A stretch of 14,806 bases of DNA from an uncultured archaeon (GCA_964458565.1 CAYWJO010000065.1:1-14806); one strand, 5' to 3'. Counted from the stretch's first letter, positions 1,044-14,708 are shown. The notes: generated by a model not told the origin, from the letters alone. Numbers and translations are program-made.

Positions 1044-1172
1044 ATCTTAGACAGGAAATTATTCTATCTTAATTGTTCCCAATCGCGTATTCTATTGCAA
1101 TGCAAACCCTTTTTGCTTAGACATTTAAAGAACTAAGACCCAATTAGTGAAAGTGTAGTGTGGAGGATTCAG

Positions 1173-2450
1173 ATGACACATTCAGAACTCCAATTTTCAT
1201 TGGAACTCAAAGACCCACTTCATGGGTACATTGGAATCACCTCAGTAGAACAAGAACTACTCAACCTTCGTCATGTTCAGAGACTCCGCAATATTCGATC
1301 ACCTGCAGGTACTCGACTGGTATATCCCGGTGCAGATTCATCTCTGATGGGTGCCATGCTCGGAACTGTGCATATGACTGGACTATTTGCTAGGTACCTC
1401 GAAGCTGATTTAGATGAGGTACAAAAAGCACGTTTAGGGGCATTCCTCCTTATAATTGCGAAAGGTCCTTGGACGAATGTAATGGATGAGTATTTAGGAA
1501 CTAGAGGTCACAATCGAGTGAAGCTTGCTGATACCATTATCAAATCCTCCAGAGTTGGTGAAGTACTAAAAGACAATGGCTTTTCGCTCTCTGAATTATC
1601 CGATATTGTGACAAAGGGTATTCTGGTAAAGGGAATACGAATCAATCTAATGACTACTCCCATCAATCCTGAGTTGATTGAGAATCTTGATCGTGATTCG
1701 TATTTCACGGGGGTGGATTATTCCCAACTAGAATATCATAGGTTATTTACTAGTACTAGAGTAGCAAAAAACAAAATTGCTCTGAAGCGAGATGCCCTTT
1801 ATACCCTAGAATCCTACCTTTCTGCTGGAGCTAATATGTTTGACGCTGTTTATTATCACAAAACATGTCGTGCTGCAGAGTTAATGTTGCTAAGAATTCT
1901 AGAACTCGCTGGAAGTCATATCATGACACATCCTGAGCAAAACATAGACAAATTCCTTGAATACGATGACTTGACATTCCACCACATTCTGAGATATTGC
2001 AAGGAAGAAGACAATGAATCAGTCAAAGAAGCAGGTAGACTCTATGATGATTTCTGTAAGAGGTATCTGTTAAAACGAGCAAGCAGCAGATCTATCTCTG
2101 ACAAGAGTTTTCTTGATAGAATCTCAACTCCTGATGGTCTCTTTGCAATTGAAACAGAAATTGCTGAAGATGCAGGTATTGATCCAAGTATGGTCTATGT
2201 TGATTATCCCGACCGAACCTCAGTCGCATTCTATCCTGGAAAACACGATTTAGAAGATCTTGTTCTCTATGAACGGGGTTCCAAAGGTTATGAATTCTGG
2301 CCAGTCACGGAAATGAGTTTAACTGCTCGAAGTTTTGGTCGGAACTTGAAAAGAGTTCGAGTCTATACTAGTAGGGGATATCGTGCACGCGTGAAGAAGA
2401 CAGCCGATAAATTACTTGAGAGTCTTGATACCCCTGGAATGGAGATATAA
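1173..2450 (+). CDS. SAMHD1/YwfO-like HD-superfamily (dNTP triphosphohydrolase-like) protein, catalytic motifs degenerate
   Basis: Family landmarks KDPLHGYI, QRLRNI, VYPGA, GPW, RDSYFTG, VYYHK and YDD are present. Start placed at ATG 1173 behind GGAGG (1162-1166) rather than GTG 1158. The HD dyad and first metal His are absent (see findings). Confidence 0.88.
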   Translation: MTHSELQFSLELKDPLHGYIGITSVEQELLNLRHVQRLRNIRSPAGTRLVYPGADSSLMGAMLGTVHMTGLFARYLEADLDEVQKARLGAFLLIIAKGPWTNVMDEYLGTRGHNRVKLADTIIKSSRVGEVLKDNGFSLSELSDIVTKGILVKGIRINLMTTPINPELIENLDRDSYFTGVDYSQLEYHRLFTSTRVAKNKIALKRDALYTLESYLSAGANMFDAVYYHKTCRAAELMLLRILELAGSHIMTHPEQNIDKFLEYDDLTFHHILRYCKEEDNESVKEAGRLYDDFCKRYLLKRASSRSISDKSFLDRISTPDGLFAIETEIAEDAGIDPSMVYVDYPDRTSVAFYPGKHDLEDLVLYERGSKGYEFWPVTEMSLTARSFGRNLKRVRVYTSRGYRARVKKTADKLLESLDTPGMEI

Positions 2451-2528: not shown

Positions 2529-4805
2529 GTGTTCTCCTGTAAAAGATGTGGATTGCCTCTCTACATAGAGAGTGCGGAACTTAAAGATCGAATCCTCAAG
2601 ATGGACGTCAGTTGCCTTCGCGGACATAAGAGTGTACGACGTTTGTCTGAACAGCAAGCAACTGAAATTGCTGAGGACCTCTTCCAAAAAATAACTGTTT
2701 GTCTGGATTGCGGGTCAACGATGACTCAGATAACATCTGATTTACAAGGCCCCCGTGTTGAGGCTGATTTTCTATGTCCCATTCACGGTGTTCAAGGACG
2801 TGAATATCCCTCTTCATTCCTACCAGCAGTAGGTCTTCTTGATACAGGAGACGACGTGAGAAGAGCCATCATTAACGCTTTCAAATGCGATCAATGTGGA
2901 CGGCTCTTTGCTGTGCGTGGTATAGACCTGATACCAGGTGGTCTTGAGCTCGAGGTTAGGTGTCCAAATGGTCACAGGAATACAAGATACGTCCCAAATG
3001 ATTTGGACTCTGATTTAATGACAAAGATATTCCAGCTGACAGCTAGTTGTGATAAATGTGGTTTACTTGGACACATTGGTAAACTTGAAGAAAGGAAGAG
3101 GAAATCAAAGATATTTGTTACATGTCCTATTCATGGGGACGAACGAAAGGATATTCCTAATGAAATTCTATCAAATGTAAAGAAAGCCATTGAAGAGATA
3201 TCTCCGGAAGCAGTCGTTGGAGCTATGTTGGTGACACGAGATTGTAACCATCCACTGGCAATTCGCAGTATTGAAGAAACGAAGACTGGTTTCAAATTCA
3301 AGTGCATCTGTCCCATAAAAGGACATTCAATGGATCGGGAAATCCCAATCATTTGGAATGAGGCTGTGAAAGAGAGAATCACGGCAGGTCTCCTTACATG
3401 CAGTGAATGTGGCCTTATGACACAAATCATTGATAGCAAGAAGAGTAAGAAAAGTATTGATTTCAAAATAACATGTCCAATCCATGGAGTGATGGAACGT
3501 TCAGTAACTCCTGATATCTTCAAGTATGTTATGGAAACTAAAAACTCAATTGATCAATTACCTTCGATTATTAAGAGTCTGAGTTGTGAAAAGTGCCGAC
3601 TACCTTCAATTATTCGAGATGTAGAACATCGACAAAATCTAACGGAACTCGAAGTCGACTGTAAAAACGGGCATAGAAGTAAGCGGTTCTTTGCTCCAGA
3701 CCTAGATGAAGTAACTCTTGTTGCCCTTTACAAGAATTTGTACCGTTGTCCTGAATGCTATGAAGATTTAGAATTAGTTTACATTGAACCTCAAGGACGT
3801 GAGTCTCGTGTTGTTCTTTTATGTAGTCTTCATGGTAAACATGTTGTTGATATTCCTCCAGAACATGCTGGAGCCTTACATAGGGCGTATGAAGAAATCC
3901 AGAAAGAGAAGATACATCCTCCTGTTGAGGCGGCTCCCGAACCTGAGCCACCAACCCTTGAGCCCACCACAGAGAGCGTTGAAGACATTGACGAAGCGGT
4001 AGTAGTACTTCGCGGCTGCGAAATCATTGGTGGAAAATTCGACTACAAATGCAAGGTGAAGAATGATAGTGGATATGTTATTACGAATGTAACTGTGAGT
4101 ATAGTTGCTTATCCGCAAGATTGCATGGAATTAGCTGGTGAATCTGTAAAGACGATCTCACGGATTGAAGTGGACGGATTTAGGTCTCCTCAATTCACAC
4201 TGTATCCAACAAAAGACTGTGTCCAAGGAAAGATAGTTGCTACTGTATCATTCATTGACTTTCGTGACCAGCTTCATACAATTCAAGTAGAACCTTATCT
4301 GATTCGGTCAGTATGCGACCTGCTAAAACCTCTCGAAGCCACTTCAAAAGAATTTGATCTCATTCTCACAAACCTAACAAAAACTCAGCAAGAACAGACA
4401 CTTGATTGGAATGCCAAAGTTCTCTTCACCAAAGCTGAGAAATTGTTGCCCTCTAAGAATTTTCATATTGTCGATACTGAGGAGAAGTCAATAGGTGGTC
4501 AGTTCATAGGGCTCATCCGAGGTTATGCTCAGGGAAAATATACGGGTAAGAAAGTCGCGGTAGTGTTTCTTATCTCAGGTCCAGAGAGTGGTCGACACTC
4601 ACAGGTTAAGGTCGAAGCTCTTGGCGAAGACATCGCAATGTTACCTACAACAATAGATGAACTAGCTGAAACAATGGACTCTTGGATTTGTCTTCGATGC
4701 GGTGCTCCACTTGATGAGGAACAAATAAGCGAACTTCATACACGCCTTCCTATAAGATGTCGATATTGTGCTCATTCACTCACAATCGCGCTCTACTTGC
4801 AATGA
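2529..4805 (+). CDS. Multi-metal-ribbon repeat protein (8 CxxC-x21-Cx2-3H modules) with C-terminal Ig-like + platform (adaptin/COP appendage-like) domain and terminal CxxC...CxxC Zn ribbon
   Basis: 758-aa ORF with a GTG start preceded by AGGAAG. Periodic Cys/His motifs over aa 4-435, Pro/Glu linker aa ~464-489, beta-rich domain aa ~490-719, CLRC...CRYC at aa 721-747. The CDS is well supported; the domain names are inference. Confidence 0.85.
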   Translation: MFSCKRCGLPLYIESAELKDRILKMDVSCLRGHKSVRRLSEQQATEIAEDLFQKITVCLDCGSTMTQITSDLQGPRVEADFLCPIHGVQGREYPSSFLPAVGLLDTGDDVRRAIINAFKCDQCGRLFAVRGIDLIPGGLELEVRCPNGHRNTRYVPNDLDSDLMTKIFQLTASCDKCGLLGHIGKLEERKRKSKIFVTCPIHGDERKDIPNEILSNVKKAIEEISPEAVVGAMLVTRDCNHPLAIRSIEETKTGFKFKCICPIKGHSMDREIPIIWNEAVKERITAGLLTCSECGLMTQIIDSKKSKKSIDFKITCPIHGVMERSVTPDIFKYVMETKNSIDQLPSIIKSLSCEKCRLPSIIRDVEHRQNLTELEVDCKNGHRSKRFFAPDLDEVTLVALYKNLYRCPECYEDLELVYIEPQGRESRVVLLCSLHGKHVVDIPPEHAGALHRAYEEIQKEKIHPPVEAAPEPEPPTLEPTTESVEDIDEAVVVLRGCEIIGGKFDYKCKVKNDSGYVITNVTVSIVAYPQDCMELAGESVKTISRIEVDGFRSPQFTLYPTKDCVQGKIVATVSFIDFRDQLHTIQVEPYLIRSVCDLLKPLEATSKEFDLILTNLTKTQQEQTLDWNAKVLFTKAEKLLPSKNFHIVDTEEKSIGGQFIGLIRGYAQGKYTGKKVAVVFLISGPESGRHSQVKVEALGEDIAMLPTTIDELAETMDSWICLRCGAPLDEEQISELHTRLPIRCRYCAHSLTIALYLQ
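2538..3908 (+). repeat. Protein-level tandem repeat: 4 copies of a ~116-aa A+B double metal-ribbon unit
   Basis: Module starts at aa 4, 58, 120, 174, 236, 291, 353 and 407 (spacings 54, 62, 54, 62, 55, 62, 54). A modules end CxxGH (CPIKGH in the third) and B modules end CPIHG/CSLHG. No obvious identity remains at the DNA level. Confidence 0.9.
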
Positions 4806-11913: not shown

Positions 11914-12717
11914 TTACACTTCTTGAACATCAATTGTGAGTTCTTGGGAGCAAATTAGAAAACCACCGATTAAGATGTAGCCTTCAATAGCCAGAATTCC
12001 AACAATGACGAGGATGATCATTGTTGATGCATACCATACTAATAGACTACTCAGGTACATTGCCATTAATCCCAAAAACAAGTAGCGAATGATCCCTCCA
12101 ATATGCCCCTCACGGAGTGCATAGTACTGAGTATAAATAGAAGCTGTAATTAATCCCATGATAACCGAGAAGAACAAATACCATGTCGATTCATATGGAC
12201 CATATTCGACATTTGCACCAAGTATACTTGGAAATGCAAGTATTAATGCTAGGGCTCCGAAGACTAGTGCAATTGCCCAAAGACGTGGAAACGCAAAACC
12301 CAGCACATTATTTGAGGCTCTCACATAACCTGCGACTCCAAGTATCCATAGAATGAGTGCAGTTGCTCTAGCACTTGATACCATGTATGGAAGAACTTGG
12401 TTTTCTGGTTGACTCAATGCGATGGCATTAGCAATATCCGCTAATGCTAGAACAAGAATACCTGCCGATAGGAGCACTCCTAGCATATGGAATGTATCAT
12501 CATGAAATAAGCCAGAGGAGCTATATTTGAGGAGACCAAAAAATCCGACTCCAAAGCCAAGCATCGCTGAGACCACCGCCATTGTGATTCCAATTGAATT
12601 AGCGGGTAGACCAGTAAACGGCAATAAAAGAAGTGAAAGAGCAGCAATCCCTATTGTAGCAAATGGTAGTATTCCTACACATTTTTTTCGAATGTGAGGC
12701 TTTGCTGCTTCTGTCAT
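11914..12717 (-). CDS. Uncharacterised integral membrane protein (~8 TM helices), resembling stand-alone membrane sensor modules
   Basis: 267 aa, eight hydrophobic segments with short loops and no soluble domain; 51 bp downstream of the longin gene on the same strand. Confidence 0.8.
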   Translation of the reverse strand: MTEAAKPHIRKKCVGILPFATIGIAALSLLLLPFTGLPANSIGITMAVVSAMLGFGVGFFGLLKYSSSGLFHDDTFHMLGVLLSAGILVLALADIANAIALSQPENQVLPYMVSSARATALILWILGVAGYVRASNNVLGFAFPRLWAIALVFGALALILAFPSILGANVEYGPYESTWYLFFSVIMGLITASIYTQYYALREGHIGGIIRYLFLGLMAMYLSSLLVWYASTMIILVIVGILAIEGYILIGGFLICSQELTIDVQEV

Positions 12718-12768: not shown

Positions 12769-13962
12769 TTAAACGAAGAAACGTTCCCATTCAACTTCAA
12801 ATGCACGATTTGGGAAACGTGTTTCAACTTCATGTCGCGTTTGTGTGATAATCCTTTTCACGGGTGCCTTTCCTGTAAATTGATTTGCAGTCACACATAC
12901 CTCTTCCAATAATGCTCTTAATGCCTCTCGCAGTAATTGGGGTGATATTGCGCCTCTAGATACGCCCGCGATAAGTGATGGTCGCACCTCGATATCGACA
13001 TGCTCTTCTAACTCCACATACCCTAACCATGTGTATTGATTCACCAACTTGTTGCGTGCCTGAAGAAAGACCTGACGGGAGAGACGATATCCCAGTAGTT
13101 TGGAAAGCCTCTGTAAAAGACCTTGAAGGGTTGAGGCGTACAGGACTACTAATGCCTGTCCTGGTGAAACTTGCTCCACTTCTCTCCTTCTAGCAAGTGA
13201 TGCTATCTCTTGGAGAAACTGCCGTATATCAGATGTCTTGACTCTCTCTGCAGCTATGGAGAGTGGGGTTTCACCATCTAGCTGAGAGATAGCTCTTTTT
13301 ATCTCCTCTGAAACAGTCTGAGATGAATCACCGTTTTCTACAAATGTTGTTGGTTGATAGATATCATCTGGTCGAGGTAGCGTGGTTACTGTGACTGCTC
13401 TGTCCCAGAGCGCATCGACTGTGAGATTCATTGTAACCTCTACGGGAAGCTCGAGGAAATTACCTACATCTTCAACACTGCATTCTTCAGGTAATAGACT
13501 GAGAAACGCAGTGACATCTGGATTTCGAGTATAATATTCCCAATCTCTCTTTACATGAATTGTCGTGTGAGGATAGACCTGATCTCTGATGAACTCTTCA
13601 ATCATGACACGTTCAAAACGAGAATATACTGCAAGATCCATTTCAACCCAGCGAAGGAGATGAAACTGCTCCTCGAACCTGGCGATTACGCGAGATAGTT
13701 TATCTCTTAGAGCTGCTGTGTCATTTGAAGCAGCCATAGCTCCCATCGTCCACTCTCCGTTCTCAACGAGTAAGGTGTATCCTGTTCCTTCAAATGCTCT
13801 TGCTTTCGAATCTCGTGAGAGTGTTGCTTCATCAAAAAATGACGCCATCGCTACAATGAAGGATGAGAGTAAATGTGGGTCGAAAATCGATTCACCAAAG
13901 TCGTGATGGTACATACAAACCCCTGAGTCTCTTTTTATGATGTATAGGCTCTTCACGTCCAT
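12769..13962 (-). CDS. Longin-domain protein with two winged-helix-like repeats and a helical C-terminal domain
   Basis: aa 1-125 match the Asgard/eukaryotic longin pattern (SLYIIKRDSGVCMYHHDF...DPHLLSSFIVAMASFFDE...LSRVIARFEEQF...FERVMIEEF). aa ~148-193 and ~218-265 are wH-like (ISQLDGETPLSIAAE). GAGGT lies upstream of the ATG. Confidence 0.82.
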   Translation of the reverse strand: MDVKSLYIIKRDSGVCMYHHDFGESIFDPHLLSSFIVAMASFFDEATLSRDSKARAFEGTGYTLLVENGEWTMGAMAASNDTAALRDKLSRVIARFEEQFHLLRWVEMDLAVYSRFERVMIEEFIRDQVYPHTTIHVKRDWEYYTRNPDVTAFLSLLPEECSVEDVGNFLELPVEVTMNLTVDALWDRAVTVTTLPRPDDIYQPTTFVENGDSSQTVSEEIKRAISQLDGETPLSIAAERVKTSDIRQFLQEIASLARRREVEQVSPGQALVVLYASTLQGLLQRLSKLLGYRLSRQVFLQARNKLVNQYTWLGYVELEEHVDIEVRPSLIAGVSRGAISPQLLREALRALLEEVCVTANQFTGKAPVKRIITQTRHEVETRFPNRAFEVEWERFFV

Positions 13963-14096
13963 GGGTTTGTACCTCGGTGGAATATGCGGCTTCCCAAATA
14001 ATGATGAACTTAATCTCTTTTGAGGCTTCTAGTGAACCTCTACAGACTAATGCTATTGCATTATGACTATAAGTAATGAATCTTGTTTGTTGGGAT

Positions 14097-14708
14097 ATGA
14101 GCCGAGATAAAGAACTTGCAGTGAAATGTCCTTCATGTGGGACTGGAAATCTCAAAATCACTTCCATGATGTATAGCGTTCCTTTCTTCAATGAACTCGC
14201 GATGTTTACAATGGAATGTCCTGACTGCAACTTCCACCACAATGATGTTTTCTCTGCAGAACAACGAACTCCAAGTCGCTGGACACTACTAGTGAGTGAT
14301 CCTCAGTTACTTAGAGTAAGGGTTGTTCGTTCAGGATCAGGAACTATACGATTTCCTGAGTTTGGAATTGATGTGGAGCCAGGACCTGCAGCTGAGTCTT
14401 TCATCAGCAATGTAGAAGGGGTTCTTTACCGAACTAGGTCCGTTGTGGAAAGTGCTGTGAATTTCGCAGATACAGAAGAGCAACGCACTCAAGGTTTGAA
14501 AGTTTTGGATATGATGGAAAAGGCAATCAAAGGTGAACTCACCTTCACCCTTATCATTGAAGACCCAGCAGGTGTTAGTGGAATTTTACCTGATGATTTA
14601 CGTTTAGTAAAGCACGAAACACTCACTCTCGAGGAGGCTTCAGAGCTGAAAGGTGCTCCGATGTTCGTTGATTCGATTCGTGAAGAGTTCAGAGAGCACA
14701 AGGGTTAA
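14097..14708 (+). CDS. Archaeal ZPR1-related zinc-finger protein (COG1779)
   Basis: CPSCG...YSVPFFNE...CPDCNF, RVVRSGSGTIRFPEFGIDVEPGP, FISNVEGVL and FTLIIEDPAGVSGI are ZPR1 motifs. Start more likely ATG 14097 than 14076. Confidence 0.94.
   Translation: MSRDKELAVKCPSCGTGNLKITSMMYSVPFFNELAMFTMECPDCNFHHNDVFSAEQRTPSRWTLLVSDPQLLRVRVVRSGSGTIRFPEFGIDVEPGPAAESFISNVEGVLYRTRSVVESAVNFADTEEQRTQGLKVLDMMEKAIKGELTFTLIIEDPAGVSGILPDDLRLVKHETLTLEEASELKGAPMFVDSIREEFREHKG

Follow-up and report, generated by a model that had tools for sequence, protein, structure and literature searches.

Forerunners of the trafficking machinery of eukaryotes are sought in the Asgard archaea, and for archaea the fold of one part of this machinery, the ear or appendage domain, has already been published. 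The passages found of Makarova et al. describe appendages, an immunoglobulin-like (Ig-like) plus a TBP-like domain, in archaeal and Asgard ESCRT-linked proteins, some of them with a zinc ribbon or behind a transmembrane linker, and regard them as interaction hubs (bioRxiv 10.1101/2024.02.06.579148). Among metal-binding repeats, the nearest described tandem array is that of the DUF723/DUF4379 proteins (PF05265, PF14311; e.g., P0309 and P0310) with their long series of Cys/His knuckles of 60-70 amino acids (aa) and a strand-CPxHG-strand element, and a Cys3His site of the pattern C9-X2-C12-X20-C33-X2-H36 coordinates mononuclear iron in GDGT-MAS (PMC9433317). Here we analyzed a protein in which a repeat array of Cys3His modules is hinged to an ear. 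It is encoded by the open reading frame (ORF) 2529-4805 on the plus strand of a 14,806-nucleotide stretch of DNA, in the following called the window, from an uncultured archaeon (GCA_964458565.1 CAYWJO010000065.1:1-14806) belonging to the Thorarchaeota (Asgard archaea). We propose, with a probability of roughly 0.55, that this protein is a zinc-stabilized docking scaffold which stands in place of an adaptin trunk and is tethered to an ear. Gene and protein are laid out as follows.

2529-4805, plus strand: whole gene, 758 aa, GTG start
2529-2690, plus strand: module 1, type A (C4, C7, C29, H33), one helix
2691-2876, plus strand: module 2, type B (C58, C61, C83, H86), CPIHG, two helices
2877-3038, plus strand: module 3, type A (C120, C123, C145, H149)
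3039-3233, plus strand: module 4, type B (C174, C177, C199, H202)
3234-3389, plus strand: module 5, type A by profile, degenerate site (T236, C239, C261, H266) with C259 close by
3390-3575, plus strand: module 6, type B (C291, C294, C316, H319)
3576-3737, plus strand: module 7, type A (C353, C356, C378, H382)
3738-3914, plus strand: module 8, type B (C407, C410, C432, H435), one long helix
3915-3995, plus strand: Pro/Glu-rich hinge, aa 463-489, with the lowest predicted local distance difference test (pLDDT) values of both models (68 and 71)
3996-4331, plus strand: Ig-like beta-sandwich subdomain of the appendage-like domain, aa about 490-601
4332-4682, plus strand: platform (TBP-like alpha/beta) subdomain of the appendage-like domain, aa about 602-718
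4683-4802, plus strand: C-terminal Cys4 zinc ribbon (W719, C721, C724, C744, C747, all invariant in alignment A1)

The position of the start codon is backed by the orthologues, which begin with MFSC or MFTC at the identical point, and the Cys3His modules fill the first 60% of the ORF. A preliminary description of this DNA had announced an array of eight such modules and listed the ligands of seven. All seven ligand sets are present in the translation of 2529-4805 at the residues named there, and the eighth, module 5 (aa 236-287), is a real module with a degenerate metal site: profile comparison and the predicted fold identify it as a true type A, but in its site, T236-x2-C239-x21-C261-x4-H266, the first Cys is replaced by Thr, and the displaced H266 is poorly conserved, being kept in only 19 of 36 relatives. 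In distant relatives module 5 is intact (CxxC-x21-CxxGH). Modules 1, 3, and 7 have the type A motif C-x2-C-x21-C-x3-H and modules 2, 4, 6, and 8 the type B motif C-x2-C-x21-C-P-x-H-G. The modules measure about 57 aa (units of 52-65 aa) and the A/B unit, the di-module, recurs with a pitch of 116-117 aa. Chance is excluded as the origin of this pattern, since seven strict motifs were observed in aa 1-470, whereas 200,000 shuffles never contained more than two (none in 199,365, one in 634, and two in 1). Across 36 homologues, the spacer of 21 residues, described as invariant, was exact in 229 of 233 motifs, and the ligands of the seven modules are kept in 30-36 of the 36 aligned sequences, whose identity goes down to 30%. 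Strict alternation was borne out by comparison of the module profiles, which gave probabilities of 93-99% for A-A and 94-98.5% for B-B pairs in contrast to 2-85% for A-B pairs, with A-B scores two to four times lower; thus, the alternation is real.

The modules have the predicted fold of zinc ribbons, with an antiparallel sheet of three strands flanked by two hairpin-borne Cys/His knuckles. In the AlphaFold2 model each ribbon is followed by helix, as had been expected from the sequence: one helix after type A and two after type B, except for module 8, where a single long helix takes the place of two. The array model, calculated from a 36-row alignment, has a mean pLDDT of 91.3 and a predicted template modeling score (pTM) of 0.80, and within aa 1-460 every 10-residue block reaches a pLDDT of at least 75. 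With these values and no weak block, we read the predicted modules as packing confidently against each other. Hits of a Foldseek search with the whole 470-aa array against the PDB, eight-bladed propellers among them, were rejected as 3Di repeat artefacts (template modeling score about 0.1, root mean square deviation 18-30 Å). Complex prediction of the array with the ear lent no support (score 0.04, mark 0.32), which weighs in neither direction. No transmembrane segment was found in the 758-aa protein, which is soluble.

The C-terminal 270 residues were modeled at a pLDDT of 95.2 and match adaptin and COPI appendages over both subdomains, with a best Foldseek E-value of 1e-9 (AP2 alpha ear). 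Behind the flexible hinge (aa 463-489) an Ig-like sandwich is followed by a TBP-like platform. Identity to the ears of AP-2 alpha/beta2 adaptin and of beta- and gamma-COP of COPI (1b9k, 1w80, 1e42, 9qpq_H, 1r4x) is 6-13%, and none of the Pfam appendage families matched at E up to 10. In contrast to adaptins and COPI, the protein has an additional Cys4 ribbon after the platform, and mu or sigma partners are not known. Instead of a HEAT/ARM solenoid trunk (there was no Adaptin_N or HEAT match), its N-terminus is the zinc-ribbon array. The combination of appendage and zinc ribbon is also found in a Methanobacteriales protein of Makarova et al., but the array gene lies outside any ESCRT neighborhood, unlike the proteins of that preprint, and the passages found of it (10.1101/2024.02.06.579148) make no mention of an eight-module Cys3His array.

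The ear plus ribbon is a mobile module: an exhaustive search of representatives gave 410 matches in proteins of 125 to 2867 aa, and Thorarchaeota paralogues carry two tandem ears instead of the array. A transmembrane-like segment, called with a simple hydropathy window, lies at most 150 aa upstream of the ear in 88 of the 144 representatives with an ear match, and in the inspected examples an Arg/Lys stretch usually comes after it. The N-termini of these proteins are of extracellular type (SBBP propeller, DUF7948, TSP3, beta-helix/NosD, PKD, LVIVD, SBP_bac_5), and the ear plus ribbon is their predicted cytoplasmic tail, which makes them putative single-pass surface proteins (P0128, P0134, P0140, P0141, P0145, P0160, P0177, and others). 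Soluble ear representatives number 31. Ten of them were scanned with Pfam, and four had TPR, LRR, or weak WD40-type propeller repeats; TSP3 repeats, a TIR domain, and a weak match to E3_UFM1_ligase occurred in others, and one had an EAP30/Vps36 domain. The latter protein, P0227 (780 aa, soluble), carries the ear followed by the EAP30/Vps36 ESCRT-II domain (PF04157, 1.5e-9) and thereby presents a direct fusion link between the ear family and ESCRT.

That the array fills the slot of classical interaction repeats within the ear family is our main argument for a role as docking scaffold. According to this proposal, aa 1-462 would form one rigid, metal-stabilized scaffold of four tandem twin zinc-ribbon units of about 116 aa, in which seven Cys3His sites would hold structural Zn(II) and the eighth has decayed. 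The flexible Pro/Glu hinge would link this scaffold to the adaptin/COPI-appendage-like ear and the Cys4 ribbon, so that the array would take the slot of the adaptin solenoid trunk and, in sister ear-proteins, that of TPR, LRR, or WD40 repeats. As a soluble cytoplasmic adaptor, the protein might dock one or more partners with the array and recruit others with the ear.

The metal of the array was initially discussed with reference to the Cys3His site of GDGT-MAS, a motif that had been named correctly (PMC9433317). The type B modules come close to the pattern of this enzyme (MJ0619, PDB 7tom) and have a compatible fold, but their spacer is one residue longer, and type A differs further in ending with C-X3-H. 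In addition, the rubredoxin-like domain of GDGT-MAS is present as a single copy in a radical-SAM enzyme, and its iron was shown experimentally. No sequence homology of the array to GDGT-MAS or rubredoxin was detected with Pfam or at E up to 10 in the PDB profile search, where 7tom was not among the matches, and no radical-SAM domain was matched by Pfam in the array protein. One reading of such sites is a multi-iron rubredoxin-like chain serving as electron relay, or a metal sensor whose fold depends on the metal or redox state. The conservation pattern speaks against it. Module 5 is incomplete throughout the clade of the window while the array is retained; in the sister-family protein all four ligands of module 3 are lost, module 4 reads HCCH, and module 8 CCCC; and in several relatives the His of a module is replaced by Asp. 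A missing central center would break a relay, which would not tolerate such losses, whereas decay of single sites in a persisting array fits structural sites buttressed by their neighbors. Moreover, neither Pfam nor NCBIfam revealed a redox partner domain in the protein, its C-terminal domain is an interaction hub rather than an enzyme, and the adjoining flavoprotein gene is convergent and not co-transcribed. We therefore consider an iron chain or sensor very improbable. Of the two options left by the preliminary description, a zinc-ribbon scaffold and a redox iron chain, the former is thus favored, and the Cys3His sites would most likely hold structural Zn(II). Intact sites may still hold iron despite the decay next to them; in that case the array would be an unusual poly-metal protein.

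Database searches gave no described family for the array, in agreement with its first portrayal as an unfamiliar repeat architecture. With Pfam nothing exceeded the cut-off (top match DUF723 with 17.2 bits vs. a cut-off of 20.9, over 13 residues), NCBIfam returned no family, the PDB sequence-profile search with a di-module reached a best E-value of 0.16, and the best ESM Atlas score of 0.84 was under the useful range. A profile search among longer proteins retrieved bacterial DUF723/DUF4379 repeat proteins at E-values of 1e-8 to 1e-3. These, however, are another family with another architecture: their likeness to type B is limited to the strand-CPxHG-strand element (hhalign 82-91%, 15-29 columns), type A modules did not match (2-10%), and in their unit of about 65 aa the ligand order is reversed, with CPxHG first and CxxC second. 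Their arrays consist of one repeat type without A/B alternation and are tied to Vsr-like nuclease or helicase domains. Classical zinc ribbons (NrdR N-terminal, 9fzf/7p37; ZPR1 finger, 2qkd; bL33; eIF2beta/eIF5) are single or double and have Cys4 sites, whereas the array has Cys3His sites, a fixed helix appendix per ribbon, and eight ribbons fused in A/B alternation; sequence matches to them were insignificant (E 0.16 or worse). C2H2 and tristetraprolin-type CCCH fingers (about 28 aa with a beta-beta-alpha fold, or C-x8-C-x5-C-x3-H) were rejected in view of array units of 52-65 aa with C-x2-C-x21-C-x2/3-H. Zinc ribbons bind nucleic acid in NrdR, TFIIB, RNA polymerase subunits, and ribosomal proteins, and the eight ribbons might accordingly read DNA or RNA while the ear recruits effectors, an explanation that we rate as quite improbable. 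A repeat trunk of fixed number that is stapled by metal and hinged to an ear was not found in Pfam, NCBIfam, the PDB, or the searchable literature.

Small ORFs in other Asgard families (155-250 aa from stop to stop) encode exactly one di-module, which a Pro-rich linker joins to a terminal double-CxxC ribbon. In the protein collection, one-di-module proteins form about 30 clusters, mostly of 152-163 aa, and are named 'zinc-ribbon domain-containing protein' of Hodarchaeota, Promethearchaeota, and Hermodarchaeia; Pfam matches in them cover the terminal ribbon only. Free-standing di-modules align with those of the array nearly without gaps (alignment A4). Their existence as small proteins of their own bears out the proposed 4 x A/B organization, in which the A/B unit is an evolutionary unit and not a mere pattern. 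Together, these proteins define an unnamed twin zinc-ribbon domain family, of which several Asgard lineages carry a single unit and Thorarchaeota four in a row.

A free-standing di-module also looks like a self-sufficient binding unit, and the array might be a multivalent reader of tags or lipids, in which each di-module binds a ubiquitin-like modifier, a peptide motif, or acidic membrane, as in an ESCRT-0-like cargo collector. NZF, UBZ, and FYVE fingers act as such readers in ESCRT-0/-II. The fusion of the ear family to EAP30/Vps36 in P0227 would fit this idea, and so would Asgard ESCRT-linked proteins that, in the passages found of the preprint cited above, often join an ear, PH, or steadiness-box domain to several zinc ribbons and are proposed as ESCRT-0 analogues (10.1101/2024.02.06.579148). 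On the other hand, Pfam revealed no similarity of the array to NZF, UBZ, FYVE, or A20 fingers, the window contains no ubiquitin or ESCRT genes, and the four di-modules have diverged to a mutual identity of 17-29%, which makes one identical ligand unlikely. We regard a reader function as improbable.

Homologues of the 758-aa protein number more than 180; nearly all are hypothetical proteins of Thorarchaeota metagenome-assembled genomes, with full-length identities of 55-63%. When 400 genomes of the phylum were scanned, a complete array turned up in 68 of the 85 genomes that belong to the window's family and in the one genome that represents the sister family, and was not found with the array query in the remaining ones. 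A paralogue of about 615-634 aa has the same eight modules, all intact, and 33-37% identity to the 758-aa protein. It retains platform and ribbon without the sandwich (hhalign 98%, E 2.4e-13), a relationship that profile-profile comparison revealed while BLASTP of its tail against the ear gave no match. In two genera the paralogue gene lies directly downstream of the 758-aa gene, and in another genus it is alone in the slot. It was identified at the following positions.

L022:2765-4609, minus strand: paralogue of about 615 aa
L032:9801-11639, plus strand: paralogue of about 615 aa
L033:9600-11441, plus strand: paralogue of about 615 aa

The paralogue is absent from the window's genome (93% complete), where it was lost or never present. 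In a tree of the di-modules, each of the positions 1-4 forms its own clade, in which both types of paralogue are represented (support 98/98, 100/96, 98/100, and 98/95), which indicates that the fourfold duplication is older than the split of the paralogues and agrees with the old duplications postulated before. Grouping of di-module 1 with 3 and of 2 with 4 was weakly supported. The number of di-modules was four or one across the collected proteins; counts of three or two were fragments or probable shortened gene calls.

Several observations weigh against the docking scaffold. The iron site of GDGT-MAS has the Cys3His pattern with CPxHG as well, so that zinc is assumed, and the rigidity predicted for the array leans on pTM, which is only an indirect measure. 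The neighborhood of the gene offers no context for the presumed link to membrane trafficking, and the conservation of its gene order is no more than general synteny inside one family. Finally, the window's genome has only two full ear domains and hence no large ear network; clustering of ear-tailed receptors by the array was therefore discarded as unsupported in this genome. A more far-reaching version of the docking scaffold, which we consider unlikely, is that the 758-aa protein and its 615-aa paralogue represent an archaeal proto-adaptor, with an eight-ribbon, metal-stapled trunk for the HEAT solenoid and a hinge and ear recruiting accessory factors. If this were true, they would be working components of a membrane-sorting system in Asgard archaea to which the ear-tailed surface proteins and the ESCRT-linked ear proteins are related, and an independent 'trunk-hinge-ear' solution older than eukaryotic coats. 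Regardless of its partners, the array protein is a compact, soluble, and confidently modeled target for studying what archaeal ears bind.

The gene is part of a block comprising genes for an M28 peptidase and an HD-associated-domain protein, followed by the array gene and genes for the flavoprotein, DUF2070, PadR, and two ABC exporters. This block recurs in genera of the family with identities of 40-72%. The co-directional upstream gene 1158-2450 (plus strand, 430 aa) ends 78 bp before the array gene and keeps its syntenic position in the whole family. Its product matches PF19276 HD_assoc_2 only (aa 193-421), with no Pfam HD-domain match in the first 190 residues and no NCBIfam family. A functional pair of the two genes is not claimed, because the whole 15-kb block is equally conserved, so that the pairing reflects general synteny, and because they are not adjacent in the sister family. 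The minus-strand ORFs 3131-3523, 3610-3954, and 3876-4118 within the array gene were dismissed as shadow frames. Further downstream, the minus-strand ORFs 11914-12717 (267 aa) and 12769-13962 (397 aa) matched nothing in Pfam at E up to 0.001 and have partial matches in related genomes. A ZPR1-type protein (zinc finger plus jelly-roll, PF03367/PF22794) is encoded at 14076-14708 on the plus strand; its kinship with the array is limited to the zinc ribbon. In the search of sequencing runs, the DNA was matched in salt-marsh metagenome runs only, one of which is possibly the source, and there were no RNA runs among those listed.

Besides one array and the two full ear domains, the window's genome contains four ORFs with the terminal helix and ribbon only (L036-L039, on contigs C75, C69, C13, and C40 of G000). 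They encode a TPR-like protein, a multi-CxxC protein, a membrane protein, and a 66-aa product, and each ends with a helix and CxxC-x19-22-CxxC, matching only the last 60 or so positions of the ear profile. The terminal ribbon may be a tail module of its own that different proteins share. The only other full ear gene of the genome is an ORF for 394 aa on another contig (L003:1471-2655, minus strand; L003 corresponds to G000:C2:201821-205453), which matches the ear profile with an E-value of 1.5e-39. The N-terminal part of its product appears HEAT-like by eye, with no Pfam match, and the terminal ribbon is absent. This gene is located between genes for a Ras/Rab-family small GTPase (L003:602-1180, plus strand; PF00071, 6e-46) and a WD40 propeller protein (L003:2782-3633, plus strand), and the locus could be a 'mini-adaptin + GTPase + WD40' cluster.
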